From Hormiphora californensis (taxonomy: Eukaryota; Animalia; Ctenophora): a stretch of DNA of 64,000 nucleotides. The DNA lies in the NCBI GenBank assembly GCA_020137815.1, contig CM035352.1, positions 6,510,001 to 6,574,000 on the forward strand, read 5' to 3'. The position numbers and the translations under genes are program-made. Below, piece by piece: positions 3,855-64,000 of this stretch. How positions within the stretch are numbered: the first letter of the stretch is position 1; every line of letters begins with the position of its first letter. The notes below the pieces were generated by a model. It searched no databases and was not told the DNA's origin. It saw only the letters and a list, made by a program, of their open reading frames with translations.

Positions 3855-4889
3855 GTTACTCTATCGATTGGAAATAGTGATGAATATTAGTACGTATGCA
3901 CTATACTAACGACACAAAAACGCATGAAATTTCTATAGAAACGTTAGCGAAACCAAAAAGATACTTAGGAAAGTAAAGAGGTTTATGGCAAGTGGTCTGT
4001 GGTATACTAATTATCTTTAAGTGGGAAGGCATAACCAGTAGAGCTGAAACCACAAATTGCTTTCCTTGCTAGGCAACTAGACAAACTGAATCAGCCAGCC
4101 ATGTTGGGAGATTATATTATGAAATACCGTGCGTGACGTGTCATAACTTACAGCACGAAGACTCAAGACGAAGTTACTACAGCTACAGATCACCCTGTGA
4201 CGCGTTAGTAAGGCTGGAACGTATCTAAAACTTAGTCTTATCTCCTAATTGGTATAATTGTGGAGGATTATGAGTCATATAAGATGGTTCTTAGTCAACA
4301 TTTATGACTAAGAAACATCTTATAATTGCCATCATACCCAATACTTCATTTCATGTTGTATGGTAAAACAGGGCCTGTTACAGAGGACCAGATTATCGAA
4401 GACGAGATATCGAATGCGTTCAACGAGCAGGCATCAGGTAAATCATTGATCCATGGATGAAGCACGAATAGAATGACATAACCGTTTTAGCTTTTATAGC
4501 CAGCTTAAATTTAAAACTGGAGTCCTGTTTATTACCTCATTACCTCCCAGTGCTCTTACCCCCTCATGAGTCCTGTTTAGTTAAAGTGATAGATCACATC
4601 ATTTTAAGTGCCTTTTAGAAGAAAAAATGATTTTTGGCACCTCTTTAACTTGGATATATACCGGCATTATCTCTCTGTTCTAATCTACTACCAATAATGG
4701 TAGTAGAAAAGTATTTTAGAAGCTTCAAGTAGCTCTTTATCTAGCTGGCAGTCTCCCCAGGTGACAGATACCATCCCTTCATTGGCTACCCCACAATCAC
4801 ATGACACAGTTGAAGGACACAATCGACTTTGAGTCGCTTGACACTGTTTCTGTGCTCCGCAGAATAAAAATGAAGTATGAACAATGAAC

Positions 4890-8726: not shown

Positions 8727-11041
8727 GAGTTGCTGAAAAAGATCCGGTTAATTATTACTCTAGTTACCCCCATCTCTCTCTCTGTCTGTCTCTCTTTCCC
8801 CTCTTTCTCTCTCTCTCTCTATCTCTTTTTTTCCCGTTATAAAGAAGGGTTAGAACAATTATATAGTCAATAATTTGTGGGCTGTTAAAAAAGATTGCAT
8901 AACACGAAAGTAACTCAAGATTTCAATCGCAAACAATCATTGTAAGTTCTTCTAACGCAGCCTGAGTCGCGTGAGAGAGCTTGTCAGTTTGTCACGCAGC
9001 ATTTGCATACAGTCTGTAGGCAGATATGTACCTTATAAATATAAAGGTGATCTCCTTCTGTTGCTGATACACACACACACAAGCTCTCTAAACAACAATT
9101 TAATGGAGAAGGCCAAGGGGGGTTGGAAGCTTAGTGAATAACTTAGTACATATATACCTGAAGGTCCCTGGTTACATCCCTGCCAAACCCACTATTATTC
9201 GATCGACATGTAGGTGTGTTTTTCATTTCATCAATCCCATTAAAGTATGATATTGCAGTGAGTCATGACACCTCAAGATATAATGATAGAGAGATCTATT
9301 CTAGAACAAAGACTTTTAAAGGTTGACGTCAACGCACGTGCTAAAAAGATCATTCAGGGTTTAGAAATCAGCAGATTGTGTAGTTAACTAAAATGTCCGT
9401 CCGTCCGTCCACCGTTACACATAGCAACAAAGTCTGCTCCTTCATAAATCTTTCAACTCACACTTTGTTGATGCAACAAAGGAAATGATTAACACATATT
9501 GTGGCGCGCAATTACTCACTCGTAACACTTCCTATTTTCACCTGAAATCACTTTGGGTACCCTACAGCCGTACCATGACGTGGTAGCAAGTCTTCCAAGC
9601 ATGAAACTACTATCACACAATAATTGCAAGTGACTGGTTGTTAAGATTACTGAGGCCTGAGGGTAAAGGTGAAGCGCTTGGTCACCAACTAGGGTCTCCT
9701 AAGCAACTGTCTTGGTTATCATAGCAACTGCCTTGGTTACCATAGCAACCACCCTGGTTACCATAGCAACTAACATCGTATCAGCCAAAAATTGCTCTTA
9801 GAGTGCAAAATTCATCAGAAAATCTGAATTTGAAGCTTAGTCATCAATTTTACACCCATCTAGGGCAGGGAAACACCGCATTATGAATACATAATGCAAT
9901 AATTCTTGTTTGTCGGCTAGAAATATGTGCAAAATAGGGGGTATACTGATAAACGAGAGGCGTAATTAAAAAATTGATACCGTAATATCTCCGGTTCCTG
10001 ATGAGATACAGAAACCGTTTTGGTAGCGTTGGAAAGGTCTTCTTGAGACCAATCCAACGCAACCAAGAGCAAGTAGCTATCTTTTGAGGAACCGGAAACG
10101 TGAATTTCAGTGCTGACAATATCGGTAGACCCCCTATTTCGAAATTTTTTCTAGACGACAACAAATTCTGAAAAAATGCTTAAGATTAATGATTAATCGA
10201 AAAAAGACTATAGCCGAAAAGTTTTAGGTATCTTGTCAACGAGAAATTAAATAGGGAGATGAAAGAAAATGCAATTAAAGCCGGATTTTTTTGAAGTTGT
10301 CACCCCCTTTTTACGCGCAGCGTTGTATTTGCACGTGACAGCCCCCACTTCCTCTCACTTTTCGGCAAAAATCCGCATATCATCGGAAAGAGCATAATTT
10401 TTTGAGTCCGTAAAGTTTTTGTTTGACGAAATTGGTCAAGAAACAAAGGCGTGAGAGCCAAAACAAGTTTCCGGTGTGCAAATAAAATGTCGCGTGCCAC
10501 CCAGGGGGGTGACTTACTATGTGCCGTTATTTACATAAATACGGTCTATAGCCCAGCTGTTCATTCTGAGAATTCTAATACAAAAAAAGGCCCAAGCTAT
10601 CCCAGTTATCCTGACTTAATATTTTGGTGGTTACTGCTATGCAGTAGGGTATACGACATTTTCTTTTACAAGACTGAAGACAGTAACACAAAAGTTAATA
10701 TAGCCCACGATGCCCTTACCGTCCCCTAAACTGCTTGCCTGTTATTTTCAAATCCGTTGGTTAAAGGGTCCTACCAATCAGAGGACGCTTAGTAATGGTA
10801 GACCATTACAAAGCCTCCTCTGATTCGTCCCTTTTTCTCACGTGGCCATCCACGTGGTCAACTATTATATTCGAGTACAATAAACGGTTCCCATTTCCCA
10901 AGCAAATATATATTATATGCACACAACGCTTGCGATTCTCACTAACTCACCACTCCCACATCTAGGTAGCGCAGGGGTTAAGTAATGCATCCCAGCAGTA
11001 AATAATAAATATATGCTTTAACGGGTTTAGTTTACTTCTCA

Positions 11042-12693: not shown

Positions 12694-27598
<14,905 letters not shown>

Positions 27599-41029: not shown

Positions 41030-41679
41030 CCTAGAATTAAGATAATGTTATTTACTGTGCATTACAAAGGCAATTGATAGACATAGACTTGCAAAATCCA
41101 AAGAAGTGCCGAGTGGGCGCTTCCTTCGAAGTTATAAGTGTTTTTATCTTCTTTTGACAGTGGTGAGTGATCACTGGTCAGTGACAATGTGACATAGCCT
41201 TCAAACGGGTTCATTAACGATCTGGGCTTCGTTGTAAAGGAACAATTGATTATGAACAAATTGAATAGAAAATTAAACTTTCGCCAATCACCTCTCAGCC
41301 TCTCCAAATTGGTGCAATGGACGGAAACAAGTTCAATCATCGGCATTGCTTCAGGCGATTTTCAAAGCTTTTCAAATAGTGAGGGAACTGGCTCTCCGGC
41401 CAAGCGGTTCCCTGTGCTTCCGAGATCAGAGGCGTATGGCGGCGCATTGACGCAAAATCAAAAAAAATAAAAACATGAAAAAAATAAAAAAACGTGTTTC
41501 AAAAAACATGTTTTTAAAAAAACATGTTTTCGAAAATTTTGATTTTGCGTCAATGCGCCACGTAAGCCGGCTCAATGACGCAAAATCATGTTTTCAAAAA
41601 TTTTTATTTTGCGTCAATGCGCCACGTGGCCGGCGCATTGACGCAAAATCAAAATTTTCGAAAACATATTTTTTTAAAA

Positions 41680-43322
41680 CTAGAGTACCCGTTTGCTGGG
41701 AACCCGTGACCTGGTAAATGGTAATTGGTAAATCATTTACTGTAACGCGCGAATTTTTCCAAAAAAGCGCTGCTTTTTTACGCCGCGCGCGGAACCTAGA
41801 ATTACGCGCGCAGTGTAAAATTTTAAAATTCATTGAAAATTTCCTCGCGTTTTATGTCGCCAAAAAAAGTCGACGAAAAATTCCAAATTCGTGAATTTAG
41901 AATTATAAGAACTCCGGTCCGTTTTCCGGGAACCCCTGGCCAAAGGACATTAAAGTTCACATAACGACCAAGTTTCATATCGATGGGGGGGGGGTCGGCC
42001 GATATTGGCCTTGAATATAAATAGTGGTACACACACTAACAATGTCAATAATAAATTAATCAAACGGGGTCAATAAATTATATAAATAAAGATTTAGTCT
42101 ATTTGGTAGATACTGTCGTCCCTGCTGCTGCTGCCTTCCGCCCTAAGCCGTCCGCGGTGCCCCCTGATGGAAATGGTGACGGAGCGGACCATGGCAAATG
42201 ACAACCTTAGCCTCAGGTACCGGATACACTGATCGTATGAATATCCTGTTTTAGTCGCCTTCTTCTCAGCCAACTGTTTCAAAGTCTTATTAAATTCCCT
42301 TCCGAGGCCCCCTGTTGTTGACATTACCAGTGGTGTGAATGTTGACTTTTCCACCTCTAGGACACGGTGGAGGTAGGATGTTTTCTTCTCTCTCTCGTGT
42401 TTTTCATATGTTTTGGCGATGGTCTGGTTTGAGTTGGACGATATCCTTGGATTGAAAATCCTAACATCAAAATAGATATTGTCCATATCCGACCAAAAGC
42501 CGCGACTACTGATGTCAAGTCTGGCGCCATCGGCTATTATAGTGCCAGCCGGAAGATTCACCCCTCGAACATTTAGAAGATGGGGCTCGATCTTAGTGTC
42601 GACACATACTTTATTCAGTTCGTGGCCAATGAGATCTCTCACGTTGTTGTGTCGGAAACATACAAAACCTCCGAGTTTACAGGATATGAGGTGGTCGATG
42701 GTGTTTTCTTCCCCACATGCACAATGCTGAGGTAAGGCCTGTCCGACGAGAGGCAGGTTGTACCGAGCAGACATGGCGTCATGCCACTCTTGCCTGTTGA
42801 GTGTGAAGTTCAAGGATTGGAGGGGGAGACATGTTAACCAGGATGAGGCCCCCTTTTCGTTGAGTAGGTCCAGATTTCTGATTTCAGCTGATGTCATCAA
42901 ACTTTTGATCTCATATCGATTGGATAAGATTTTGGGTGGCTACGGTGAAAAATATCGTATTTTTGGCATTTTTAACTTTCCCGACGCGATTTACGACCCT
43001 TAAACATTGAGTTACGGGAAATCGCTATCATGTAAAATGAAGTTCAAACGATTCTCTTTCCCCACTATTGCGTTAGTTTTTTGATTTAGAGCCGTTTTCA
43101 GGGTCTTAGAAGCGTTTGAAAAATGTAAGTATTTTTGGCGCAATGACGTCACCCCGTGACGTCACTGTTGTAAAGATCGGATCAAAAATCTGAGCCCGTA
43201 CTTACACCCGCCTAGGGTCCAAAGTACCAGTGTACAAATTTTCAGGGGTCTAGCTCAAAAACTGTAGGAGGAGTAGGGAGAAAACAATTATCGGACTAAC
43301 ATTTTGGAAATTATTATATGGA
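41680..43322 (-). mobile_element. Non-autonomous Helitron
   Basis: On the minus strand A|TCCATATAATAA...cccagcaaacgggtactCTAG|T: 5' TC, 3' CTAG, AT target, no TSD. Confidence 0.7.
41985..42910 (-). mobile_element. 5'-truncated CRE-like non-LTR retrotransposon (zinc knuckle + restriction-like endonuclease; ORF 42094-42900)
   Basis: GASSWL, CACG..DHLISC, RHNNVRD, RLDI..GFW..YFDVRI, HEREK motifs; 10-bp TSD tcatatcgat (41975-41984, 42911-42920). Confidence 0.85.
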
Positions 43323-43439
43323 TATGTTTTTTGAAACACGTTTTTTATTTTTTTTAACTTTTTTTACTTTTTTGATTTTGCGTCAATGCGCCGCCATACG
43401 GCAGGGCTGAACCTTGGTGTGCGCTGCAGTCAACAATGC

Positions 43440-43909
43440 GTATGGCGGCGCATTGACGCAAAATCAAAAAAGTAAAAAACGTTAAAAAAAATAAAAAACG
43501 TGTTTCAAAAAACATGTTTTTAAAAAAATATGTTTTCGAAAATTTTGATTTTGCGTCAATGCGCCACGTAAGCCGGCTCAATGACGCAAAATCATTTTTC
43601 GAAAATTTTGATTTTGCGTCAATGCGCCACGTCGCCGGCTCAATGACGCAAAATCAACATTTTCGAAAACATGTTTTTTTCCCGAAAATTTTGATTTTGC
43701 GTCAATGCGCCGGCCACGTGGCGCATTGACGCAAAATAAAAATTTTCGAAAACATGATTTTGCGTCATTGAGCCGGCTTACGTGGCGCATTGACGCAAAA
43801 TCAAAATTTTCGAAAACATGTTTTTTTAAAAACATGTTTTTTGAAACACGTTTTTTTATTTTTTTCATGTTATTATTTTTTTTGATTTTGCGTCAATGCG
43901 CCGCCATAC
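43440..43909. mobile_element. Foldback MITE, uninterrupted copy
   Basis: Palindromic along its length, built from ttgacgcaaaatc modules. Confidence 0.85.
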
Positions 43910-45645: not shown

Positions 45646-46258
45646 TAGCCTGAGAATACAAAATAATATCGTTTACTCAATTACAGTGTCACTCAAGGTT
45701 CGGATCATCCTTTGACTCGTTAAGAACAATTGCCAATTTTCTCTCCCATCGCTTTATAAGAATATCTTCGATTCTTGCTCTGCGGATAGGGTCGCTCAGT
45801 ACTCTCAGCTGCTCTGAAATGAGGGACGAGGGTCAGTAACAGTTTATTCATAAATCAAAGGTATTCAAATTATGGAGTATGGACTATGGTGGAAAGTGGA
45901 GACCTGTTGTGAAAAAGAGAGATTCTTGAGTATCCATACGTTCTGTACAAGCTTTATCAATAAATTTCCTCATACATTCTCTCCAATATTCTATAGGCGA
46001 ATCCATCTCTAGACACCAAATATGCAACGGGACGGAGGCTGGAGGGATAAACAAGCACGAGCTATACAGGTGGCAACTAACTTAGAGGGGGAGAAAGACA
46101 AAGGGGTAGGGCAGTTCTTGATGTCATGAAATTTTACAGTAGATAGATTTTCATTGTCATTTGGCTGATACATATAACCTGCTGACTTTCCACGTCATCT
46201 GAGTGTTGGCTCCTTTTGAGCTAAAGCTTTGTGTACAATACTAAATTTATTTATGAAT

Positions 46259-46300
46259 GTTTCAAACTTTTCAACACTACTTTAAACAAATTAATTTGAG
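46259..46300 (+). other. Genomic copy of the ctenophore spliced-leader exon forming the 5' end of a LINE insertion
   Basis: GTTTCAAACTTTTCAACACTACTTTAAACAAATTAATTTGAG matches the Pleurobrachia/Hormiphora SL as recalled from memory. It is not followed by a GT donor, so it is not an SL RNA gene. Confidence 0.8.
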
Positions 46301-47168
46301 TTTGCCGTCAATCGATCTGATAACTGTGTTAGCATCTTATCTCTAATCTTTTTGATCTCTGTTGAGCCTACTTTAACGTAACTTATGAGTGAAATCTGTG
46401 AAGAGTTTTTTGTAGATGTAGCACTAAGAGTGAATTTGAAGATGTGTTATCAGGTGATGTATTAGACAAGTATAAAGGTAGTGATTTGTTGATTTGTCTT
46501 AGGAGGGATGACACTAATTGCCCATCGGGTCTTTTGAAACCTCAGCTGTGGGATATTCTCAAGGTTTGTTACAAACTGATCCCAGCTTCACTGCCTTACT
46601 CTGTTCCTGCAGACAATATGGACCTGAGAGAATCGTTTGAGAAGCTTCAGAAGGATCTCATCAGTACCATTTCATCATTGGTGAGACCAGTGGCAGAAAG
46701 TGAAGGATTGGAAGGTGTGGCTGAGAAACCGAAAGATATTCAGGAAGAACCGGAGACTCCTGAGATGAAACATTATGTCAACATAACCACCGGAGGAGGC
46801 CAAGGTGAAGAGGAATCTTTCTGTGCAAAAAAGTGGGCGGAATTTGTGAAACCCAAAGTAGAAAGTGCCCTGAAGAGTGAAGACTGTCCCTGTGGTTAGA
46901 TCTAGAGTCAATAGTGATCACACCAGGTTGTATTTTCCGGATGAGGACCAACTGAAAGAAGCAGAAGGAGGAACAGCAAAAGTATGAGGATTCTGAGGAA
47001 CATGAAAAGTATGAGGATTCTGAGGAACATCAAAAGTCTGAGGATTTTGAGGAACACGGGAAATATGAGGAACATGGGAGGTATGAGGATTCTGAGGAAA
47101 CTGGCACTGAGGGCTGCACGCCTAGATGGACAGATTTTGCAATTGTTAAGGAGGAAGAAATAATATCT

Positions 47169-48770
47169 GTGATCAAGTCAATGTCTAACAAGCACTGCGA
47201 CCTTGACCCCTTACCTACTTCTGTTGTGAAAGAATGTGTCAGAGAACTAGCACCAGTACTAACTGCAATGGTGAATCAATCCCTTCAAAAATCATCGGTA
47301 GCGGAGACACTTCAGAAGGCACTTGTTTTCCCAACCATCAAGAACCCTTATGGTGATCGTGAAGCTCTGACGAACTATCGGCAGGTATCGAATATACCAT
47401 TCCTTTCAAAACTTCTGGAGAAGGTTGTTCTGGGACAACTTAATGACTATATCCAATGTCACTCTCTTCTCGGAAAGCACCAGTCTGGTTACAGGGTTGG
47501 GCATAGTTGCGAGACTCTCCTCGTTAGTATGTTTGATGATCTTCTTGGTGAAATGGACAAAGGGAATGTGGTAGCTCTCATATGTCTTGACATGAGCGCT
47601 GCCTTTGACACAGTAGACCACGAAGGACTCCTTAAAGTACTACAGCAGAGGTTTGGTGTGGATGGTGTACCACTCCAATGGTTTAAGAGTTATCTGGGCT
47701 CTAGGTCTTTCTCGGTATCGGTACAGGATTGTCTATCTGAAACCTTGGCATTACTCTGTGGGGTGCCTCAGGGCTCTCTTCTCGGACCGGTTTTGTTTCT
47801 TCTTTACATCGAGGCTATACAGGACATTGTGAAACCTTATGGACTACGGATTAAGGTGTATGCAGACGACTCCCAATTGTATGTCAGTCTTGTACCCACG
47901 GACCCTATAGGATGGATGAGGACGAAGGCGGACATTGAAGAATGCCTTGCTAAGCTGAAGTGGATGGTGGAACAGTGGCTGAAGTGCAATGAGGCAAAGA
48001 CGGAGTTCATTCTAGTTGGCAAGAGCAGCTCAATCAGTAAGATGTCATTTGAACCGGTCATCAACTTTGGAGGAGAAGATATTTACCCAACGGAGTGTAG
48101 TGGAACGGATGGTAAAACTCTTGGTGTTCTTTTGGATCATAATCTGACAATGGAGAGGCAGGTCAACAACGTTCGGAAACAGTGTGGCTTGGTGTTGAGG
48201 AATCTCTGGCAACTGAACAAATGTTTCGATATTTCAACGAAGATTATGCTAGTAAAGCAGTTGGTGATATCTAAGATTGATTACAGTAACATACTGTATT
48301 GTGGACTACCTAAAAAGATCTTGGATGGGCTCCAGAAAGTTCTCAATTCCTGTATTCGCTTCATCTATAACCTCCGTGGGCACCAGGAAGACTACATGGA
48401 TTTCTTCCGGCAGTGCCATATTCTTCCGATCACTCAGAGACTTACTTTCAAAGCTTGCTTAATAGCCTACAAGATAGTCAGCGGTACAGCACCGGAATAC
48501 CTTCAAGATTTGGTACCTCTTGATGATTGTTGGGGAGCATCTAGAACTACACGGATGACAGGAGTTCTTGATCCCTACAGGCTCAAACACCCTAAGATGT
48601 CCAGTATCAATGCTAACTCAAAGCTAAGACGGAGGAGGATATCTGTGTTCCTGCCAATGGTGTGGAATGACCAACTAAGATCTATTCCTAATGTGGACAC
48701 CTTCAAATCTCGGTTAAAGACTCATCTGTTCACTGTGGCATTCGGCGAGGTTCCCACGGTTCTGGTATAG
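47169..48770 (+). CDS. Non-LTR reverse transcriptase (L2-like), N-terminally incomplete
   Basis: NYRQVSNIPFLSKLLE, QSGYR, LDMSAAFDTVDH, GVPQGSLLGP, YADDSQLY, C-terminal FKSRLKTHLF. Confidence 0.9.
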   Translation: MIKSMSNKHCDLDPLPTSVVKECVRELAPVLTAMVNQSLQKSSVAETLQKALVFPTIKNPYGDREALTNYRQVSNIPFLSKLLEKVVLGQLNDYIQCHSLLGKHQSGYRVGHSCETLLVSMFDDLLGEMDKGNVVALICLDMSAAFDTVDHEGLLKVLQQRFGVDGVPLQWFKSYLGSRSFSVSVQDCLSETLALLCGVPQGSLLGPVLFLLYIEAIQDIVKPYGLRIKVYADDSQLYVSLVPTDPIGWMRTKADIEECLAKLKWMVEQWLKCNEAKTEFILVGKSSSISKMSFEPVINFGGEDIYPTECSGTDGKTLGVLLDHNLTMERQVNNVRKQCGLVLRNLWQLNKCFDISTKIMLVKQLVISKIDYSNILYCGLPKKILDGLQKVLNSCIRFIYNLRGHQEDYMDFFRQCHILPITQRLTFKACLIAYKIVSGTAPEYLQDLVPLDDCWGASRTTRMTGVLDPYRLKHPKMSSINANSKLRRRRISVFLPMVWNDQLRSIPNVDTFKSRLKTHLFTVAFGEVPTVLV

Positions 48771-49124
48771 GTACTTGGCCGTGGGCAATTGGTGTCATCC
48801 CTTTTATTTCATTTCGGCTTTCATTACCTAGTACCTTGTTTTCAAGCTGGTGTGAGTATAGAGTGTGTTAAATTTATATCGACAGGTTTATGAGACCCGA
48901 TTGTTTTCTCAGTTACCATTACATAGTCACCTGTATTAGTCTACTTTAAACGTTTTTTTCTACCCAGTGTTGTTTGTGTGAGAGCATTATATATTACCTC
49001 TAGGATATACCGCTCTGATGATTTGACAGTTCAGTGTTAATTATATTACTCTGATACTGTTGAATATGGGCGGTATATAAGCTCCAGTTATTATTATTAT
49101 TATTATTATTATGAATGTTTAAAA

Positions 49125-49535
49125 AGTATCCTTCTTCATAAACTGAAAAGATATGGTATCAGAGGAAGACTACTTCAGAGCCTTCCTCGATGGTAGGTCA
49201 CAGACTGTGGTGATAGACGGAGCATGCTCCAGGGCCGAGAGTGTCACCAGTAGTGTCATCCAGGTCATCTGTGCTTGGACCCCTTCTATTCATCATATAT
49301 GTGTGTGACTTGGTATCCCGGACGACGGGAGGTACGCTTACCTTCGCGGACGACACCAAAAGCCGCCAAGCAATTACTGGATTGAAAGACAGGGATGCCC
49401 TACAAGAAAATCTGGAACAGATAGCGGAATGGTCGGGAAGAAATAATATGCTGCTGCATGAGCAGAAGTTTGAAGTCCTAAACTACACCCTCAACAAGAC
49501 CAGAGAACTCCGGGAGATGCCCTTCAACTCGGAGA
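49125..49535 (+). pseudogene. Degraded CR1/Jockey-type RT fragment
   Basis: ILLHKLKRYGIRGRLL, SVLGPLLFIIYV and FADDTK motifs with frameshifts. Confidence 0.75.
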
Positions 49536-51345
49536 TACTTACTTGATACTTGGTTCGGTCTCCTCAATCATTCGAGTGGCCGGCTCCAAGTATCCTCGCT
49601 CGTAGCGACGTGAGCTGTCTCCATTCATTTCTGTTCTCTGCAGTGTTAGTAATAGCACGGAGAGACTGGGATTGACCCGTAGCGTCTCGATAATCGTTCA
49701 GAACACAGGAAGTCCAGGTTTTACGCGGTTTTCCTCTGAAACGTCTCCCATGACTAGGCACCCAGTGATAGAGTTTGTTGGGCACCCTATCCTCAGGCAT
49801 TCTAATCAGGTGTCCAAACCAGCGGAGTCTTCCATTGCCAATGAACTTCGAGATTGGTTCTATCCCCGACCTCTCCAGTACCTCCCTGTTAGATACTCTC
49901 CTAAACCACTGTATTCTCAGGATTCTACGCAGGCACCGTTGGTGGAATGCCTCTACCCGGCGATCTTGGACCTGAGTAGTTGTCCAGGCCTCACAACCAT
50001 AGAGAAGCACGGTCAGAACAGCAGCCCTGTAAATCCTAATCTTGGTACAGGTCCTGATATTACGGTTGTACCAGATCCTACAGAGCATACTGAATGCACT
50101 ATATGCCTTCCCTATCCTGATACCCAGCTCCTTGTCGATGGTACCATCAGAGGACATAGCCGATCCGAGATAGGTAAAATTGGTCACCTGCTCAGCCGGA
50201 CTGCCCTCCACAGATATGTTGACCGTATCCGCCTCCGAAAAAGGACGCTGGTTAAGACCCTTAGAAAATGCCATAACTTTAGTCTTTTTCGCATTGATCT
50301 TCAAACCAGCATACCCTGCGTATTTAGCCAGTAAATCCGTTGACTCCTGGAGCCCTTCCTCTATATCATCCATTACAGCCATGTCATCCGCGTAATCGAG
50401 GTCCAGAAGCCACTCCCCTCCATCCCCACTCTCAACACCCTGAAGAGTGAGCCCCCTGGAGACAGTCTTGTTACACTCAGCAAGCTAAGCTGCCCAATTT
50501 ATAACGATGTTAAAGACTGGCGGCCCCTGGATGTCGCCCTGACCAGTACCACTAAGAACACTGAACCAATCGGAGAGTTCCCCACCATGTTTCACTGCAC
50601 TCACTGTACCATCAAAAAACGCACGAATTATCCGGATATATTTCTCAGGAAGACCATAATGGCGAAATGATGCCCAAACAAATTCTCTGTTTATACAATC
50701 GAATGCTGATTTAAAGTCTATAAAGTTTATGTACAATGGTAAATTATATGCTATACACTGGTGTATGATAGTACGGAGGGAATAAATCTGATCCACACAA
50801 GAACGGTTTCGCCTAAAACCGCACTGGTTTTCCCTGAGTGCCAGTTCCAGGCCTGATGCCAACCGATCCAGCATTACAATTTGAAACAACTTAGAGGTTG
50901 TTGACCGCAGTGTAATACCCCTGTTGTTAGAACAAATACTGGGGTCACCCTTTTTAGGGATCACCGAAATAACCCCTTTCAACCACTCCTCCGGGACCTT
51001 CTCCTCCCTCCAGACTCCACCAAACAAATCCACTAGGGGGCCGACAAGACCACTCGAGCCATACCGAAGCTGCTCATTCGTAATCCCATCAACGCCAGGA
51101 CTCTTATGATTCTTGAGCCTCTTCAGTGCCGCTAAAACTTCTCCACGAGAAGGTGGAGGATCATCCTCACCAAGGTCCTCAAAACACGGGTCCACATCCA
51201 GACCATCCAGATCCGAGAGCTGTGATGTAGTTACAGGGGGGTTTAACAGCTCAGAGAAGTGCTCCGCCTAGCGCTCCCGCTGTTGAACAGGATCAGCAAT
51301 GAGTTCACCGTTCCTATCGCGAACAGCAGTACCACCACGTTTCCT
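49536..51345 (-). mobile_element. RTE-clade LINE, 5'-incomplete, with in-frame stops
   Basis: KSPGVDGI, NNRGITL, QCGFR, FIDFKSAFD, GTGQG, YADD, LRWFGH motifs across ORFs 50485-51195 and 49564-50382 (TAG at 50485); tail caagtatcaagtaagta. Confidence 0.85.
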
Positions 51346-51399: not shown

Positions 51400-54095
51400 A
51401 ATGAAGAAAGAGAGGTAGATGAGGGTGGGGTTAGATGAAGGGGTTGGCTCCATTGCAACCTAGGATAAAATGGGGAAATGAAGAAACGGATAGATGGAAG
51501 GGGGATATGAAGGGGGAATGAATGAGTAGAGGAAGAAGGAGAGAAGGAAAAAGGGGGAGATGGAGGGGATTTGAGGGGAGGAATAGCAGGCCAAGGGGAA
51601 ATGAATGTAGAAGGATGTGACGGAGGGGCTGGTATACAGTATGGGTAGATTATGTGCAGTGGGTGTGGTGGAGCGGGGGTTGTATGGTAGAAGGGGAAAA
51701 CTGTTTGGAATAAGGGAGGCTGACTTACTGCGAAAAGAAGCAGATGGATATGGAGCGGAGATGGTTCAGAGAGAAAAGGCCATATCTGCATAACCGAGAG
51801 TGCCCCAGGGCTTTTCTTCACTTCAGTAATCAGTAATAGTGTCCACATGATGAATTCGAGTCACTGGAAGTTACTTTTAGATTGATAAATGCACCACCAA
51901 TCCAGAGTATCAAATTTTCAGCCGTTCTATCGGAATCCTGGGAGAGGTAAAGAAGGGTTAGTACAAATGAGAGAGACTAAATTGATACACACTTTACTCG
52001 ATCTTATAGTGGATACGGACGGGATATGGAGGAGAGGGGGAATGAAGGAGATGGGGGATGAAGTAGGAAATGAATGGGTATCTACCATCTAGAAAGCGTG
52101 GACGAAGGAGGGCGAAGGTCGAAGGGGGGGGGGGGTAAAGTGGTAGGATAAAAGGGGAATGAAGGAACGGATGGAGAGGGAGATGAAGGGGGAATGAATG
52201 AGTAGAGGATGAAGGAGAGAAGGAAAAAGGGGGAGATGGAGGGGAGGAATAAAGGCCAAGGGGGAAATGAATGTAGAAGGATGTGACGGAGGGGCGGGTA
52301 TAAAGTATGGGTAGATTATGTGGGTGTGGGGGAGCGGGGGTTGTATGGTAGAAGGGGAAAACTGTTTAGAATAAGGCTGACTTACTGCGAAAAGAAGCAG
52401 ATGGATATGGAGCGGAGATGGTTCAGATAGAGAAACAGCCCTCACCGAGAGTGCCCCAGGGCTTGTCTTCACTTCAGTAATCAGTAATCGTGCCCACATG
52501 ATGAATTCGAGTCACTGGAATTTACTTTTAGATTGATAAATACACCACCAATTCAGAGTATCAAACTTTCAGCTGTTCTATCGGAATCCTGGGAGAGGTA
52601 AAGAAGGGTTAGTACAAATGAGAGAGACTAAATTGATACTACACTTTACTCGGGGAGTCTGCACTTTAGACTCCGAGGAAGATGAAGGAGAGGAAGATGA
52701 ATGGGGATAGTAGATACGGACAAGTTATGGAGGAGAGGAATATTAAGGGGAGGATCAAGGGGAGGTTGAAGAGGAGTAGAGATAGAGAGGGGTATAATGA
52801 AGGAGAAAAGACCGTCCCTCTCTTTCTCTTGTTTGTGTGGGTAGATTATGAGGGTGGGGAGCCGGGAGGTTGTATGGCAAGAGGGGAGGATGTTTTGGAA
52901 TTTCACTTACTTTAGCGAAAAGAGGCAGATTGATACGTAATGGAGACGGTTCAGATAGAGAGAGCCCTCACCGAGATTTCCCCAGGGGCCAGGGCTTATT
53001 CTTCATTTATTTCAGAACACCATAAAACTCGTTTATCTGCTGTTTCCGACCAGCTAGCCCCAGACTATCGCAGACTTCATGATGAGCTTTGTAGACGTGG
53101 CTCTTCCACCTGGTTGACAACCCTTCCCTTGGAGGAACACGGCTTCAATCTCAACAAATCCGAGTTTCGTGATGCTCTTGCCCTGAGGTATGACCTTTCC
53201 CTTCGGGAGTTTCCCAACCATTGTGCTTGTGGTAAACCAAACTCCATCGAACACTGTCTAACTTGTGCTCGCGGAGGCTATGTGCATCTCAGGCACAACC
53301 AGATTCGCGATCTAACTGCCAATCTTCTGGTGGAGGCTGGGTGTACGGATGTTAAAGTGGAGCCCCATCTTCTCCCTCTAACTGGTGAGACACTCCAATA
53401 TGCCTCCGCGATCACCAATGATGAGGCACGTCTTGATGTCTCGGCTCGTGGTGTCTGGTCTGACTTATCAAAACTGTTCATTGATGTCCGCATCTTCAAT
53501 TCTCGAGCCCCAACCAACAAATCATTGCCAGTCAACAAGGTTTTAAAGAAGCACGAGGACGAGAAGAAGCGTACTTATGGAGAGCGTGTACTGCAGGTAG
53601 AGAAAAGCTCCTTCACACCAGCTGTTTTCTCTACCTCTGGAATCATGGGCGATGAGGCTGATAAACTTTACAAACAGATTGCCCACCTACTCTCAAAAAA
53701 GACCAAACAGTCCTACCCCGATTGCATCCGGTATATCAGACAGAGACTATCTTTCTGCCTGTTAAAAACTCTTATCATTAGTCTCCGGGGTCATCGTGGC
53801 CAGAGCCCGAAGAGTTTTAGTGATCGCAATGATATTAACATTTTATACATGATTAAAAACAATAACCAGAATTAATTTATTATACCCAATTTATGTACAG
53901 ATAAGATTGATTTCTATATCCATTTTACTAATTGAACCGGTACCCCGGCTTTCGTAAAAAATTCATTTATTTCAGTAATCAGTAATAGTATCTACATGAT
54001 CAATGATGCATCACCGGGAGTTCCTTTTAGATTGACGAATACACCATCAATTTACAGTGTCACATTTTCAGCCGTTCTATCTGATTCCTGGGGGA
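51400..54095. repeat. Three diverged ~550-650-bp purine-rich tandem units; third unit interrupted by a retroposon
   Basis: Core ccgagagtgccccagggctt..cttcagtaatcagtaat..ttttagattga..ttcagccgttctatc near 51795, 52445 and 52970/53975. Confidence 0.75.
53016..53961 (+). mobile_element. 5'-truncated CRE-like non-LTR retrotransposon (zinc knuckle + RLE)
   Basis: GSSTWL, CACG..EHCLTC, RHNQIRD, RLDV..GVW..FIDVRI motifs; A6 tail; 14-bp TSD ttcatttatttcag (53002-53015, 53962-53975). Confidence 0.85.
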
Positions 54096-54744
54096 GAAGG
54101 GTTTTTACTTTTTAAAAACAATAGAGACTTTGGACTCATCGCGATAGCCGGAGGTCTATCTCAGTGGTCATCTTAATCAATGAACGGTTCAACTTGTAAC
54201 TATCCAATTCACTTCGATCCATCAGATGGACATTCTTATGTAGCAGTGGAACCGTGAACCGTCACGACATTCCTTGCAGTCAGCAGTTGCACCTCTGGGG
54301 ATATCTCCCAAAGACGTCCCACCGCAAGAGACGAAATATACTGCCGGAAAAGTGACTCAGTGACAACTCTGACACACTTTCTTGGCGTAGCATGACCTCC
54401 CGGTTGGTGCATCTGTCCTAAAACTCACCGTAGAACTTGATTAAGCTAAATATTAACGGATTGGAGCATATCCTTATTAGGTAAGGCAATTTATAGGTCT
54501 TTGCCCTCATGAAGTACATAACACGGAAGGAAGTAAGTACTCTATTCAAATCAACTCATAACAATTTTCTTTGGGTTTTCGCTAACTGAGAGTCGGCCAT
54601 ATTGGATTTGGGTCGAACCAGTGGAAATCGAATGATATTTTTTCCAGAATCATTTGAAATTGGTGCGCGGCTCACTTTAACACATGCGCGTTAGCAATAT
54701 TAAATAGTGTGCGCGGCTCTACATTTGCGCGTGCAAAAGTGATC

Positions 54745-57700
54745 TGTTTCGGGGTGTTCGGGGGGTTACAGGGGGCCAGGGGCGTTGGGTGACCGTACCG
54801 ATGTATTTCCGTAGACAAAGATAAACACAGGATCTTACAAAGTGAGAAGAAGGTTTCAAGGTAAACGAAGGTATAGATTGTTAGGAAGAATCTGACAAAC
54901 TTTCTTGCATTCTCACAAAACATCTGAGGTAAAACATCTCTCGCGCGGCGGAATATGGCGTGATTCCGCGCTCGCGATATCTCACAACACATTTGGAACT
55001 CTCGCGCGTTCCATACAAACACTCAGGAAAACTGTGCCACACTCATGGCACACATCGCACACACACGTTACACACACAAACAAACTATCAGTTCACACCT
55101 ATCACACTCCCCTCTCTTTCCTTTTCCGAATCGAGAGATGAGCAAGCAGGAGATTCAGGTCCGGCAAACTACAGGTCAGGGCTAAAAATGAACACTGTCA
55201 TGAGTGGCTGGATGTGAAAAAATAAAATGGCAGGGAAAAGAAAAATGCCAGTCGGCTAATAAACTCGTGACAAAGCATCAGGTGAGTTGAAATAAGTGAA
55301 GAACAAAAATCTATCACTGGGTAAAATAAGTAGTGAAAGTCAGGTGAGTTAAATATACACACTGGGTGAGTAGTAAGAAAACGGGTTAAGAAGTAAAAAC
55401 TGGGTTAAAATAAGGTGAGATAAAATACAAAAGTAGGGATAAAGTAAACGGTTACAGCATTCCGTTGATAACGTCCGGGTTCACTCCTCTCTTTGTCAGG
55501 ATGTCAGCGGGGTTCAACTTTGATTGAATCCAAGAGACTGTGACTTCCCCTCTCTCGATTCTCTCTTGAACTTCTCGTAACGTGAGAATTGTTGACTTAT
55601 CTTCAGGGGTTGAAGACACCTTGTTTGCAGAGTCAACAACTTGTTTGGAGTCAGTGAAAATCTTGATTCCCGGGTCAAAAGTGAGTTCTCTCAAGAAGGA
55701 TTGGATCAGGATTGCATATCCCAAACCATCACTCACTGCATAGAGTTCTGCTGCGTAGACACTTTTCACAACACGTTTAACCTTGTTGGAACTGTAGGCT
55801 ATCAGGTTAGCGTGAGAGTTGTCTCCTGTTTCAGTTTGAGGGTCTCCCCAGAAAAGAATGACACCTTCCCCGGTTTTCTTGTCATGGAGATTTCCAAGAC
55901 TAGCGTCTGTAAAAACTGAAATATTAGCGTTAGTGTGAAAAATAGGGGAAAAAGTAATCTTTGTTGGGGATAAATTCTTGACAATCTTCTTCAGCTCTTT
56001 GAATTGTTTCCCAGTCCACGGTGATGTCGTAGTAATGTCAAGAAGGCTAAAACAGATCTGTGGCATAGTCTGTGTTGCCAGCCAATTCAACTTTCCAATC
56101 ACAGTCCTCATGAGAGATTGGAGGTTATCGTCAACTTCTTCACTATTCTGGGGCACAGGTTTGACAGAATTCAACTTTTCCATCATACTGTCTCTGACAT
56201 AGTTACAGTACTGCTGCTGTGTGACGAATATGTTGTTTCCTTGCTGTTTGACTTGCCAGCCAAGGTAATTGAAATCGGTTATCTCCACTCGTCCTATCTT
56301 GTAACTGTTCAGGGCGGGTTCCACTTTAGCGAAGAAATTGTGGTCACCTGTCATCAGAATGTCATCAACTTGGACAACTAGTAATCCTTCTAGCTTTCCA
56401 TCATCTCCGATGGTGAAGAATACGTTTTTGTCAATTTTAGATTGACGGAGAGTCTTCTTCAGAGTTGCAGAGAGAGAAAAATACCATTTTCTACCAGCGT
56501 CTCCTAGTCCATACAGGGGTTTCAGAAGTTTCCACAACACTCCTTGTTTCCTCATGGAATTAGGTGGTTTAACATACACCTCTCTTGACATAGTGTCTGA
56601 TTGCAAATAAGCGCTTGCTACATCAACACTCTTCAGGTTCCAGTTGGTTGTAGTAGACAGACTGAGTAGAGTTCTCACTGCATACTTTGTTACAGTTGGG
56701 GATTGGGTTTGGTCCTCTAACTTTTCCTCGAATCCACGGGCAACTAGACGGGCCTTGACTGTCCCATCATCCTTTCGGGTTATAACCCATCGGGTGCTTA
56801 CCCGGTCCTGTCCTGTGTCAGGCACTTCTTCAAATGCTTTAAACTCCTCCAGTTTATCGATCTCTTTCCTTCGTGCTAATTGCACTTCCTCTTTACCCAT
56901 CTTTGATGCTGCTAGGAGAATTTCATCATGTTCGGGACTGAAGGGTTCTTGATCATCTGGGGGTTTTCTGGGACTGTCCTCTCTGGGATCTGTAGTCTCA
57001 GGTAAAAGTACCTGCTTCTGCTCAACATGATCATCAAGATTCTGGAGCTGTTCACTTTCTGGAACATTTATCTCAGGGCAGATCCACTTTCTTGGGATAC
57101 TTCCTCAATCGGATTATCAGGATTCGGAGGCTGTTCACTTTCTGGAACATTGTTCTCTTGGACAGATCCACTTTGGGATTCTTCCTCTACCGCGTTACCA
57201 TTTTTAGTAACTTCAATCACTGTGTGTTCACTTTCGGAATCTGATACAGGATGTGTTGTTGCGGGGGTGTCTCTATGAGTTTTACTCCTCAATCCGAAAT
57301 CTCTTGCTGGGGGTGTCACTTTGGGTTTCTTCTTCTTGGGCTTCTTCTTCTGTATTACCTTGGGCTCGGTTGGCCTATCCTCGGGTTCATCTTCCTCACT
57401 TGAGTCTCCCAGTGCTAATCGCGAATTGGGGACTGTCCTCTGGTTCTGGTCTTTTCGCTCATGGACTAGCCTCACTTTACAAGGATGTGCACGTAGTAGT
57501 GCTCCACCGTGCTTGATTAAAACATTGTTATCGATCATTCCAACAACTGTAGCGGGTCCCAACCAGGTTTTGTGAGCTTCACGCTTGTAGAATACCTTAT
57601 CTCCCTGGACATAGGTATGTTGATCCTGTGTTGGTCCGGCACTATTTAGTGCTCGTTTCAGTCTGGAAGAATTTTCCAATTCGATAAACTTTAATCGGGC

Positions 57701-60071
57701 TGTCTTCATGGCTTGTAGATTCTTCACTACTAATTCATCTCCGTGAGCATTTCCTCCGTGAGCAGGTAGGCATTCTTCTGAGTCCAATACGTGTGGAAAG
57801 GTAGGAGCTGTGCCAAAAACTAGTTGATGTGGTGAAAATCCCATCTGATTGCTTAGCTGGTTCTTAGCATTGCTAGACCAAGCACAAGCCACTGGTATAG
57901 TGCATCCAGTGTCATCACGAGTTTTGACAACCATGTCTCCAAGAATTCCGTTGTGTCTCTCAGTAAGACCATTGCACCATGGGCTCTCAGCTGGGGTAGC
58001 TTTCAACTCAATATCTAGGCGGCTTGCCATCTCCAGGATAACTTCGTTGGTGAATTCTCCTCCGTTGTCCGATAGGATCCTCTTGGGGCGACCAAAGATA
58101 GAAATCCAACATGTGAAGAATTTCTGAACACATTCTTCTGCTGATTTGTTCTCAATGGGGACCATAACACTGTACCTGGTTAGTGTATCAATGATATGAA
58201 TAGTCCACTTTGATTCACCCGAGCTGAATTTCAACATCTTTAAATCCATCGCAACACACTCATTGAAAGTGTTCCCGAGAGGTAATGCAACTTTCCTCCT
58301 AGGTTTGGATCGTTGATGCTCCATGCATTGTTGGCATTCAAGTGCAACTTGGTGAAGTTCTCGACAAATCTCCTCCTTGTTGGGGTGATTGGAAGATTTA
58401 GCTACCTCCTGGATTTTCGCAGTCGAGCCATGGGCAAAGTAACGATGGAGTTTCTGGGCAATCTTTCTGGGTGATGTGGTACCTGAATCCGAAGATGTTA
58501 AAAGAGTAGTTGGAGAAAGTTTGGAGTTTAAATCAATTGTGACGTGACCACTATCAGTGAGATGTAACTGTGTTTGTTTACCCGAGACCTGTAGCACGTC
58601 GTTCCCAAAATCAATCACCGCTCCTCTCTCGCTAAGTAAAGCTCTGGATAAAAGAGGTGGGATGTTAAGGTCTAGGACAAACACGGGTACTTCATCACAT
58701 GACAAACCAAATATATCTGTGGGGATATACGCAATCGATTTAGACGTTACAGATTTGGAATCACCAAAAGTAAAATGTCTCTCACTGACAGTCTCTCTCT
58801 TACAACGTATACAAGATTCACTCTCAAATTTACGTAACCAATTTGCACCACACACTGAGATAGCTGCACCAGTGTCCAAAATCGCTCTTAGGCCACATTG
58901 TTCAGTTAGTGAAAGAATATACTCTGTACCGACAACCATCTTGAAAACTCCGTGCTGCCTGCCGCCACCACGGCCACCACGATTACCACGACTACCACCA
59001 CTGCCACCATATTTCGACTCCTTCCTGGCGCTATTCTTCTTTAGACAGTTGGAGGCCACATGTCCGGGTTTTCTACAGTTAAAACATACAATCAGAGTTA
59101 ATGATTCTGTTTCAGTTTTCTCAGAGTTAGAAACTGCACCATTTGACTCGGGAAGGTTGGCACCAAAAGTCCTTTTCATCGATTGAATCATGTCCTCTAA
59201 ACGAATATTAGGACAAGTTGCTCGTAGAAGGCGTTTTTGCTCCGGGGTCAGATTTGCTTGTTCAAGGAGTCTATAGGCAAGGATCTGAGATCCGTAGATA
59301 GCATCTTGAGTCTCCACTTCACACCTCTGCTTCAACTCATTGAGCCGTGTTGAGAACTCCGAAATGAACTCAGGAATGGCCATATCGGAAGGTCTCACAA
59401 ATTGTTCGAACCGTTCTATGGCGGTGAACAAGCTTACAGTCTTATCCCTACCGAAAACACCTTCGAGATCTTTTAACAGATAGGCCACGCCATCATCTGT
59501 TTGCAGTTTCGAGATATCCAAGCCTAGGGCATGTTCCTTCGCGGCACCAGTTAGGACATAGGCGAGGCGGGCTGCCTGGCTCTTTGGTGGACATGTTGTT
59601 CCAGCGATCCAGAGAAGCACGTCCCTTCGGTAGACATCGAATGGTAACTCGGCGTTGAAAGTGGGAGGATATATGTCTGACGGCATCGAATTGCACTTGC
59701 TGCTACCACTGTTTCGGGGTGTTCGGGGGGTTACAGGGGGCCAGGGGCGTTGGGTGACCGTACCGATGTATTTCCGTAGACAAAGATAAACACAGGATCT
59801 TACAAAGTGAGAAGAAGGTTTCAAGGTAAACGAAGGTATAGATTGTTAGGAAGAATCTGACAAACTTTCTTGCATTCTCACAAAACATCTGAGGTAAAAC
59901 ATCTCTCGCGCGGCGGAATATGGCGTGATTCCGCGCTCGCGATATCTCACAACACATTTGGAACTCTCGCGCGTTCCATACAAACACTCAGGAAAACTGT
60001 GCCACACTCATGGCACACATCGCACACACACGTTACACACACAAACAAACTATCAGTTCACACCTATCACA
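54745..60071 (-). mobile_element. Full-length Ty1/Copia LTR retrotransposon (GalEa-like)
   Basis: 362-bp TG..CA LTRs at 54745-55106 and 59710-60071; 5-bp TSD tgatc; PBS TGGTAGCAG (tRNA-iMet type); PPT gagaggggag; order gag-PR-IN-RT-RH. Confidence 0.95.
55452..59686 (-). CDS. Copia gag-pol polyprotein with one frameshift near 57075
   Basis: CFNCRKPGHVASNC knuckle, LDTGA protease, zinc-binding H..H..C..C and SDNGGEF integrase, KARLVARGF/LYGL/QVDD RT, TDAS..AELYA..NPADILTK RNase H. Confidence 0.9.
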
Positions 60072-61228: not shown

Positions 61229-64000
61229 TGTCACCCCCCTTTGTCAATATGGTGATGGGAAGGTGGACGAATGGAAACACGGTAGAATTAGATAACGGGT
61301 GGTTAACAAAATAGACGGATCAGGTAGTACAACGTTAAGGTAGTTCGATATTGGGAATCTGACAAAGTGCTTGTCACCTCAAAACTCATTCGATCTTCAC
61401 AAGAAGCACGTGCGCGCACTTGAAAGGTGCATTTCAAGTGCGTGCACAAAAGTGTCACATACTAATGATCAGTTCGCGCGTTACGTCCGGTAGGCGGTAA
61501 CAACTGCGACAGTGTGTGTCCCACAGAACAATACACTCAATCTCATGACACACAGCTCATGACACTCCCCTCTATTTCTTTCTCAAAAGGACTTACCGAA
61601 CTCGAGACCGATGAGGCAATGAAATTGAACGCCGAGAGGGTTCCAAACCGTGTCAAGGCTAAAACTGTCATTTGTCAATGTCGTAACAATACAAGCGAAA
61701 GTTAACTGGGAAAAACTAACAATGTGGAAATACTGAGATACGAAAAGGTACATGTTGTCTATGTCTGGAAGAAAAAAATAGAAAACAAAGTCAGTTGTCC
61801 GATAAAATATTTAAACTGGAGAAATAAAGTTAAAAAAATACAAGTAGGTTGGAAAACACACTAGATCATCCTCTCGATCACTCTGGGACTCACTCCTCGC
61901 TTTGTGAGTACATCAGCGGGGTTAGACTTCGACTCCACCCAGTTGATGGATGCTTCTCCCTTTTCGACCTTCTCTTGAACTTCACGTAGCTCCAAGATGC
62001 TTCCCTTATCAGTTGGTACAGCTGAGACGGAGTTAGCCAAACTCACAACTTGTGCGGAGTCTGTGAAAAGTCTGATGGGAGGGTCAAAAGATAGTTCCTG
62101 GAGGAGGGCTTTAATCATAACTCCATATCCCAATCCTTCAGATACAGCATACAATTCTGCGGCAAAGACGCTCTTCACTACACGTTTTACCTTGCCACAC
62201 GAGTAGGCGATCAAATTGAAATCAGAGCTGTCTCCCCAGAAAACTACAACTCCTGCTCCGCTCTTTCTGTCAGCTAGGTTGCCGAGACTGGCATCAGTGT
62301 AAACAATTATCTCAGCTGTGGTAGGGTTAAAAGGGGAAAAGGTTATCGTTGAAGGAGAAAGGTTGGTCACAATCTTCTTCAGTTCTTTGAACTCTTTGCC
62401 GGTCCAGGGTGATTTCGTCGTAATGTCAAGGAGACTGAAACTGATCTGTGGCATACTTTGGGTAGCCAGCCAGTTCAACTTTCCGATCACCGTTCTCATA
62501 TAGGATTGAAGATTCTCATCAACCTCTTCTTGATTCTGTGGTACCGGTTTAACAGCTTTCATCTTGTCCAGGATATCCTCTCTGACAAACTTACAATACT
62601 GTTCCTGGGTTACACAAATATCAATTCCTTGCTGTTTCAACTGCCATCCCAGGTAGTTGAATTCAGTTGTTTCAACTCTTCCTATCTTGTAGTTGTCAAG
62701 AGCGGGTTTAACTTTCTTGTAGAAGTTGTGATCACCAGTAATAAGAATATCATCCACATGAATTACTAGTAATCCTTGTAGTTTCCCGTCATCTCCAGTG
62801 GTGAAAAATACATTCTTGTCAATTCTTGACATCTGGAGAGTGTTTTTCAACGTTGCGGTGAGTGACATGTACCATCTTCTTCCCGCGTCACCAAGACCGT
62901 ACAGTGGTTTATTTAGTTTCCACAGTACATCCTTCCTCTTGAGGTAAGCTGGGGGTTTGATGAACACATCTCTTGTCATCTTATCTGACTGCAGGTAGGC
63001 ACTGGTTACATCAACACTTTTCAGGGTCCAGTTACTGGTAGTTGCCAAACTTAGCAAGATCCTCACTGCGTGTTTAGTAACAGTCGGTGAGTTAGTCGGG
63101 TCCTCGAGTTTTTCCTCAAATCCTCGGGCCACCAGCCTGGCTTTCACTGTGCCATCATCTTTCCGTGTCATCACCCATCTGGTGGTGACTGGTTGTTGTC
63201 CTGTATCGGGTACTTCCTCGAAAACATTGAATTCACGGAGTTTGTCAATCTCCCTATTTCGTGCTGTCTGCACTTCTTCCTTGCCCAGTTTAGATGCGGC
63301 AAGAAGAATGACCTCCTCAGCATCAGAATCGGGATCTGAGTCCTCTGTGTCTTGATCTGGGGTCTTTGCTGCGTCCTCTGCGGGCTCTGCAGCATCCTCT
63401 TGTGGCGTTGATGTGTCCTCATTGGATCTGGCGCTGTCCTCTGTGGGATCTGGCTCTATGTCTCTCTGACCAGTTGTATCCTCAGTATCCGGGCTGGGTT
63501 CACTTTCAGGAACTCTCACAACAACAGGTCCACTTGTTGTGGCCTCATCCTCCTGCTGGTCCTCGGTTGGGACGGCTATCTCTGCATAAGTAGGTTCTCT
63601 GGGAACTTCTTCAATGTTACTCTCACTGTGTCCATCTTGTGGAGTGTCCTCTTCGGGATCTGTTTCACTAGGGATGAGTAGTTCATCTGCAGGATGCTCT
63701 GGTGGGGGGGTTTGTCGTCGGTTGTGCCGGAGATTGTATTTTCTGGTCGGTTCACGGACTGTCTTCTTTGGACGTCTGACTCTGCTAACCTTCGGTGGCT
63801 GCAATTTAGATTTCTCTATCGGTTCCGGGACATCTTCATCAGTCGTCACTTCCGGTGCAGTCTGCATCTCGGGGACGTGTCTCTTGGAACTTGATTCCTC
63901 GTTTCGTTTGTACTCCTCTTTCCGTTGTTGGTCCTCTGGGGTTTCTTGTCTTTGTTGTACCAGTCTCACTTTGCATGGGTGTGCTCTTAGTAGTTGCCCG
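61229..64000 (-). mobile_element. Second, related Copia (GalEa-like) element, 3' part; continues beyond the window
   Basis: Open RT-RNase H frame ending at 61861 (KARLVARGF, HVDD, NPADVLTK); PPT at 61565-61573; 3' LTR ~61229-61564 with uncertain outer edge. Confidence 0.9.

Follow-up and report, generated by a model that had tools for sequence, protein, structure and literature searches.

Spliced-leader (SL) exons joined to transposable elements (TEs) have been described in flatworms (papers given by PMC number are cited here for parts of their content). Six Schistosoma leader exons merged with TEs were reported by Boroni et al. (2018), who suggested trans-spliced and retro-transcribed elements and left chimeric assembly open (PMC5832876), and 597 partial-leader loci tied to long terminal repeat (LTR) or long interspersed nuclear element (LINE) sequences were discarded with the same reading by Calvelo et al. 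(2025) (PMC12582326). Here we describe a LINE copy that begins with the spliced leader of its ctenophore host. It lies at positions 46251-49120 of a stretch of 64,000 nucleotides of the Hormiphora californensis assembly GCA_020137815.1 (contig CM035352.1, positions 6,510,001 to 6,574,000), referred to as the window. Its likely origin is a trans-spliced LINE RNA that was copied by target-primed reverse transcription, and the leader would be renewed in at least some cycles. As in the flatworm loci, a leader without the features of an SL RNA gene is found in the genome on a LINE or LTR element. The flatworm leaders are partial and, in the parts of the papers used, are side remarks without analysis of target duplications or junctions, whereas the ctenophore copy has a near-complete leader, a target-site duplication and a constant join. 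The event type is already known, and an earlier note on this DNA had taken it as newer than it is, since it had been stated for flatworm retrotransposons. The junction evidence is better than the flatworm remarks, and what is new is that the case comes from a ctenophore and shows a clean insertion scar.

Slamovits and Keeling reportedly described retrogenes with a relict leader (DinoSL) in dinoflagellates in 2008. Dinoflagellate retrogenes retain the relic DinoSL and are recycled repeatedly, and the relic was proposed to aid re-expression (Song et al. 2017, PMC5585692). There, as is likely here, a trans-spliced RNA was reverse transcribed and integrated with its leader. The dinoflagellate cases concern host genes, in which an AG inside the relic is reused and tandem relics occur, whereas the LINE's own RNA and a single head are involved here. 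In Hydra, about 30% of TE long reads bear leaders (PMC12220107), and in C. elegans, the short RNA of Cer1 is SL1-spliced, while its genomic 8-kb RNA is not trans-spliced (PMC3315495). These are likewise animal retroelement RNAs serving as SL trans-splicing substrates, at the RNA level only.

A leader beside a non-LTR element is also found in CRE/SLACS/CZAR and NeSL elements, which carry a restriction-like endonuclease, insert into SL RNA genes and have the leader duplicated at both ends. The present family encodes an apurinic/apyrimidinic (AP) endonuclease, the leader is found at one end and as a single copy in the window, and the duplication consists of flank sequence of an unrelated target, so the copy is distinct from the SL-gene-targeting elements, as the earlier note had proposed. 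The closest LINEs are those of the Jockey superfamily with a type I ORF1, a type found in the L2, CR1 and Jockey lineages (PMC4120745). They share two open reading frames (ORFs), Cys/His knuckle-like motifs in ORF1, an AP endonuclease with a reverse transcriptase (RT) and a short-repeat tail; the leader head sets the present LINE apart, and the window copy has no ORF1 start or endonuclease. The parts used of PMC11067881, PMC12460157, PMC10282587 and PMC4558846 hold no material on leader-headed LINEs. No ctenophore report and no promoter-free trans-splicing LINE cycle was found in the titles and abstract starts of the open-licence literature; Derelle et al. (2010) and the Hormiphora supplements lie outside this scope and may bear on the matter.

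Leader head and insertion scar

The window copy was compared with L001, the one related locus obtained from 206 candidate stretches in a metagenome scan, with related ORF2 proteins and with contigs of 6 of 22 sequencing runs, all presumed to be DNA except the RNA run X18, the only one used of the small-share seawater runs. Statements on the runs refer to the listed rows, which comprise 18 of 75 loose-end rows and 24 of 1,246 pieces in one set and 24 of 286 and 32 of 3,239, respectively, in the other. The copy consists of the following features.

46251..46262, + strand: 12-bp target-site duplication on the left, with 4 bases at its right end that double as the first 4 retained leader bases
46259..46300, + strand: spliced-leader exon, 42/42 identical to nucleotides 3-44 of the published 44-nt Hormiphora leader; no GT donor after it
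46301..46413, + strand: remnant of the 5' untranslated region (UTR), 81% identical to L001 over 46340-46413; 46301-46331 nearly invariant in organism label B
46331..46332, + strand: first AG downstream of the leader and second leader join site (run X8, 46298 to 46331, 2 letters common to both sides, side of 25 letters, 1 contig)
46413..46414, + strand: breakpoint of a 51-nt deletion that took the ORF1 start codon (comparison with L001; X1 record 2; a loose end in X8; a loose end behind 46413 in X7)
46414..46965, + strand: 5' part of ORF1, 86% identical to L001 at the DNA level and disrupted at 46871-46877 by a 7-nt duplication
46965..46966, + strand: breakpoint of a 1,891-nt deletion, about 6 letters fitting both sides (X2 records 11 and 12; X5 record 19)
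46966..48770, + strand: 3' part of ORF2 with acidic repeat linker, RT and C-terminal region; open, 90% identical to residues 381-976 of protein P0001
48771..49087, + strand: 3' UTR, 317 nt
49088..49111, + strand: (TTA)8 tail, its last unit overlapping the right duplication
49109..49120, + strand: right target-site duplication, a direct repeat of the left 12-mer

The H. californensis leader is 44 nt long and is present on 56% of long cDNA reads; 718 genomic copies were counted in its 110-Mb genome and 491 in Mnemiopsis (PMC8527503). Positions 46259-46300 were identical to the printed leader in a comparison by eye, with the first two leader bases missing, which confirms the 42-mer as the ctenophore leader. 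With up to 3 mismatches allowed, the leader matched the window once and none of 100 shuffles. Shorter resemblances to the leader elsewhere in the window, 14 nt at 19100-19113 and 10-nt pieces at 17373-17394, were dismissed, having no leader context.

The bases directly 3' of the leader are TT, not GT, as had been noticed before. No Sm-like motif was found in 46301-46420, and the Rfam scan yielded no family at the gathering score, with two sub-threshold matches only. These results indicate that the locus is not an SL RNA gene, in which the exon is followed by a GT donor and an Sm site. A host-identical leader lacking both, placed between target duplications on a unit with a tail, agrees with an SL-tagged retrocopy. 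A fold of leader and UTR, made without a shuffle control, showed nothing distinctive. An assembly artefact, or a decayed SL RNA gene (GT to TT) beside a 5'-truncated LINE, is extremely unlikely. The window's own left junction (flank and leader) is not among the listed contig pieces, as such an origin would allow, but there is no Sm-like site, a matching duplication stands at the far end, and the sequence behind the leader runs unbroken into the LINE UTR in X5 and X7 contigs, its match to L001 beginning at 46340.

The 12-bp direct repeat is exact, cannot be extended and occurs only twice in the window. A shared stretch of at least 12 letters with the tail zone was obtained in 0 of 3000 random draws and in 0 of 604 AT-rich zones of the window, so that the duplication claimed in the earlier note is beyond chance. 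Between the two duplications lie the leader, the LINE body and the simple-repeat (TTA)8 tail, with an overlap of 4 leader bases on the left and 3 tail bases on the right. The position of the leader inside the target duplication indicates that it was inserted together with the LINE.

From about 46148 onward, the left flank consists of repeat sequence, and three X5 contigs extend past 46262 with a further copy of its unit. Because these other copies carry the unit with the 12-mer natively, the whole 12-mer, GTTT end included, is native target sequence; the 5' microhomology, claimed earlier from the overlap of the first four leader bases with the duplication, is thus real.

LINE body and its relatives

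The window copy is a dead, non-autonomous, internally deleted member of a two-ORF LINE family. The open frame 46956-48770 matched RVT_1 (E = 5.7e-24) and contains a YADD motif, bearing out the RT described before; the (TTA)n tail is likewise confirmed, as (TTA)8. This frame is 89 to 90% identical to the C-terminal 60% of three 960- to 982-aa proteins that bear an AP endonuclease; these close relatives with intact ORF2 fall into three clusters. Protein P0007 is a 76%-identical relative, and its cluster includes a protein labelled Pleurobrachia bachei, which together with the leader suggests that the host is probably a pleurobrachiid. Neither the leader and UTR patterns nor the ORF2 protein had a match in the viral contigs or genome contigs collections.

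L001 begins at the equivalent of 46340 and hence is without the 5' end of the family. Its ORF1 (413 aa) overlaps an ORF2 with an endonuclease and contains motifs resembling Cys/His knuckles (zf-CCHC_6, E = 3e-4, under its cut-off; no RRM match). Exo_endo_phos was found N-terminal to the RT in L001 ORF2 and in P0001 and is deleted from the window copy. The non-LTR RT, the family-level AP endonuclease, the simple-repeat tail and the target-site duplication agree with the AP endonuclease-type two-ORF LINEs (Jockey superfamily, CR1/L2 group). The tentative L2 label rests on the motif LDMSAAFD, which we take to be L2-like. Between endonuclease and RT, an acidic tandem repeat of EDSEEH-like units was observed (46966-47105 in the window, 2555-2705 in L001); its length varies in P0001-P0003, and it is short in P0004.

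The two deletions and the frameshifting duplication set the window copy apart from an autonomous element, and it moved or decayed in a non-autonomous state. The 1,891-nt deletion removes the rest of ORF1, with the Cys/His knuckle-like motifs, and the AP endonuclease of ORF2. The ORF1 ATG corresponds to L001 position 107, inside the 51-nt piece missing at 46413/46414; the family UTR is thus about 140 nt, and the family length is about 4.8 kb. The earlier note had given a UTR of about 85 nt ending at the ATG at 46386, which opens a short frame only and is ACG in L001. Its ORF1-like frame holds as far as the 5' part of ORF1 is concerned, but the loss of the start codon, the rest of ORF1 and the endonuclease was overlooked. 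The UTR and ORF1 differ from L001 by 14 to 19%. The possibility that the two internal deletions are spliced introns was rejected, as their ends are not GT..AG in L001 (compared on the L001 letters).

Both a longer and a deleted form were seen in the runs. In organism label A, X2 record 11 and X5 record 19 run 691 and 252 letters, respectively, beyond 46970, which confirms the longer form under the same species label. X1 record 3 spans the large-deletion point in an alignment over its whole length, 29 of its letters lying on the right side, so the deleted form, too, is probably real. The window copy differs little from the run contigs (in one alignment of 1,232 letters, by 3 letters and a single gap of 3 letters), indicating that it is young.

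The leader join in other samples and its origin

Three contigs carried a join of the leader to the family UTR. In X7 (organism label B), the 58-letter record 19 aligned over its whole length to 46274-46331 with 1 difference. In X5 (second sample, organism label A), the alignment of the 80-letter record 13 covered 46281-46357 and contained 5 differences along with 2 gap letters, indicating a different copy with the same join. In X8 (organism label B), the leader end was joined to the base after the AG at 46331-46332. The unique left flank (45900-46133) was not covered in X8, so the join under organism label B is unlikely to be that of the window locus.

The summed depth at 46304-46311 was as high as at 46312-46351 in X5 and X7, with no fall from 46351 to 46304. 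In X2, which was used as a leakage control, the depth was 0 at 46304-46351 despite abundant leader contigs, indicating that leader-only contigs do not leak into this segment. The depth profile, in which depth is not copy number, suggests that most UTR copies are leader-linked. No loose end before 46301 was seen among the 18 of 75 rows listed. The leader head is probably shared beyond the window copy and is not a one-off. The fixed junction can be checked in existing ctenophore long-read genomes and cDNA sets.

A template switch to SL RNA or to a leader-bearing mRNA, or a LINE landing behind a genomic leader copy, is very unlikely to explain the head. Such switches do occur, as in the U6-LINE chimeras of mammals, and the empty allele has not been seen. 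A leader would also be near at hand in a 110-Mb genome with 718 copies (PMC8527503). Against a one-off event, the leader lies inside the duplication, and the join, placed exactly at the leader 3' end, is found again in a diverged copy and under a second organism label.

Under the most likely mechanism, the family RNA would be trans-spliced at the position of 46300/46301 and occasionally at the next AG; leader-headed or outron-bearing copies could supply the precursor. Synthesis by the RT of an intact copy would then be primed at the nicked target, where three target bases would pair with the TTA tail. Copying would reach within 2 nt of the leader 5' end and be completed by joining via the 4-base microhomology. 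Tail pairing and 5' microhomology are general features of target-primed reverse transcription in LINEs. The leader-headed copy would be the usual full-length form, its leader being renewed from the host SL RNA in at least some cycles. This renewal may be why the leader stays host-identical while the LINE body drifts.

Several observations weigh against this mechanism or limit it. The leader sides of the three junction contigs are 27, 20 and 25 letters, all below the rule applied to bridging contigs (at least 31 letters on each side), and shorter-sided joints can stem from repeats. A 42-nt sequence present in hundreds of copies would be expected to break junction contigs. A 32-nt deletion at the 2-base AG microhomology could also account for the X8 joint. 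The earlier note had asked whether other copies share the join; the same join in X5 and X7 and the next-AG join in X8 fit trans-splicing better than a one-off event, with the short sides as a limit on all three. No outron ending in AG before 46301 was found among the listed rows, so the trans-splicing step was not caught; 57 of the 75 loose-end rows and 1,222 of the 1,246 pieces lie outside the listing, and an outron copy may have been missed there. No contig of the RNA run X18 fell on the stretch, a result that does not prove absence. At the insertion site, no empty allele was seen among the listed run contigs, the continuation of the left-flank repeat, as known from its other copies, is absent from the window, and the right flank differs. 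Rearrangement had probably already affected the site.

The segment directly behind the leader also bears on renewal. Positions 46301-46331 are nearly invariant in organism label B (X7 records 19, 21, 23 and 24), and 46301-46362 is about two to three times deeper and more conserved than the following UTR in X5 and X7 (X7 depth of 2,657 to 3,490 at 46313-46362 versus 1,226 at 46350-46413). The first 60 nt or so are perhaps a module common to several subfamilies; their conservation fits an internal promoter equally well. Since the 31 nt at 46301-46331 are as conserved as the leader, conservation alone is no proof of leader renewal. The family UTR holds several TTAG motifs, four of them in L001 1-106.

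This conservation leads to a somewhat unlikely alternative that partly overlaps with the trans-splicing mechanism and differs in its last step: the leader would have been captured once by an ancestor of the family, through trans-splicing or a template switch, and then templated, fixed in the element DNA, with an internal promoter in the roughly 60 nt behind it and no need for new trans-splicing. Internal promoters are the rule for LINEs. The same join under both organism labels, the lack of an outron copy among the listed rows, and the near-invariance of 46301-46331 with its raised X7 depth, as expected of a shared functional module, agree with a templated head. GAG is a disfavoured, weak 3' splice site in most animals, which also favours templating and weighs against the relic's GAG as an acceptor. 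On the other side, the leader is identical to that of the host at 42 of 42 positions, being merely 2 nt short, compared with the divergence of UTR and ORF1 from L001, and the X8 join at the next AG requires a further splicing-like event.

It is also unlikely that leader-headed copies are dead-end offspring, promoterless and seldom mobile again, of masters that keep a promoter and an AG-ending outron. This would be the simplest use of the host pathway and would explain the constant join and the perfect leader; the outron form could sit among the rows outside the listing. A family contig in X2 (record 8), joined to non-leader sequence at 46354, also agrees with such masters and counts against leader-headed copies as the usual form. 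The X2 joint is either the flank of a 5'-truncated copy or an alternative upstream region. However, a promoterless lineage should die out, yet there are close intact relatives (89 to 90% in ORF2, three clusters), and the depth does not drop towards 46301. The X2 contig was also considered as a third leader join and rejected, as its loose letters are not leader and are not in the window; the non-leader sequence ends in what we take to be an E-box-like palindrome.

Under the trans-splicing mechanism, a promoter-free cycle can be envisaged, in which all full-length copies are leader-headed, transcribed by read-through and re-trans-spliced at the terminal AG of the relic. This extension, proposed in the earlier note, is doubtful. 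The only AG remaining in the relic leader is its last two bases, and both the perfect leader and the lack of any AG ahead of the leader end agree with the cycle. The TAG 32 nt downstream looks stronger but is apparently seldom used, since most copies retain 46301-46332. R2 is released by a self-cleaving ribozyme from rRNA co-transcripts, and HeT-A uses the 3' promoter of its neighbour; neither uses SL trans-splicing. They resemble the present LINE only if the promoter-free cycle holds, with the element cut from a read-through transcript at a fixed 5' end. If true, the cycle would add to the known ways in which LINEs set their 5' ends, with the host spliceosome doing the job of the R2 ribozyme.

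Leader contigs with other continuations were found as well. Differing continuations numbered 21 in X1, 5 in X2, 21 in X5 and 25 in X7, with an agreement of 0.42 to 0.57; the counts are of distinct continuations and not of copies, and true SL RNA genes may be among them. Their consensus does not begin with GT in any of the four runs. The upstream ends were equally mixed, and several contigs began 3 to 11 bases into the retained leader. The mixed continuations agree with the presence of numerous retrocopies of trans-spliced RNAs, and leader-tagged retrocopies are possibly a large class behind the 718 Hormiphora copies. The present copy offers an explanation for part of these hundreds of genomic leader copies, which were counted without explanation in the parts used of PMC8527503. 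LINE-driven copying of trans-spliced RNAs would, if true, explain much of both the Hormiphora (718) and Mnemiopsis (491) copies. Leader-tagged retrocopies would mark retroposed ctenophore RNAs, as in dinoflagellates, and would mislead 5'-exon annotation. One X1 contig contains a tandem partial leader, in which the leader is cut at 46288 and followed by two extra letters and a fresh leader start (46259).

Other features of the window

A 5'-truncated RT fragment at 49125-49545, presumably CR1-like judging from its motifs, starts 4 to 5 bases past the right duplication and is abundant in the runs. It is followed on the minus strand (49564-51267) by another non-LTR RT, which is split by a stop, matches RVT_1 and DUF6451 and is presumably RTE-like. 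An LTR retrotransposon at 54744-60071 has two identical 363-bp terminal repeats and integrase and RVT_2 matches; a 70%-identical relative of its RT region is found at 61890-63309. Two related ORFs with Cys/His motifs (42094-42939, minus strand, and 52934-53875, plus strand) resemble what we take to be the restriction-like endonuclease end of CRE/R2-type elements. The long single-exon ORFs at 2784-3860 and 7308-8747, both on the minus strand, have several hydrophobic stretches and are G protein-coupled receptor-like by eye, with no Pfam match at E 0.1. Long nested palindromic repeats (about 470 to 590 bp, 92% arms) occupy 43324-43909, with a shorter relative at 41432-41679; they are possibly foldback elements or miniature inverted-repeat transposable elements.

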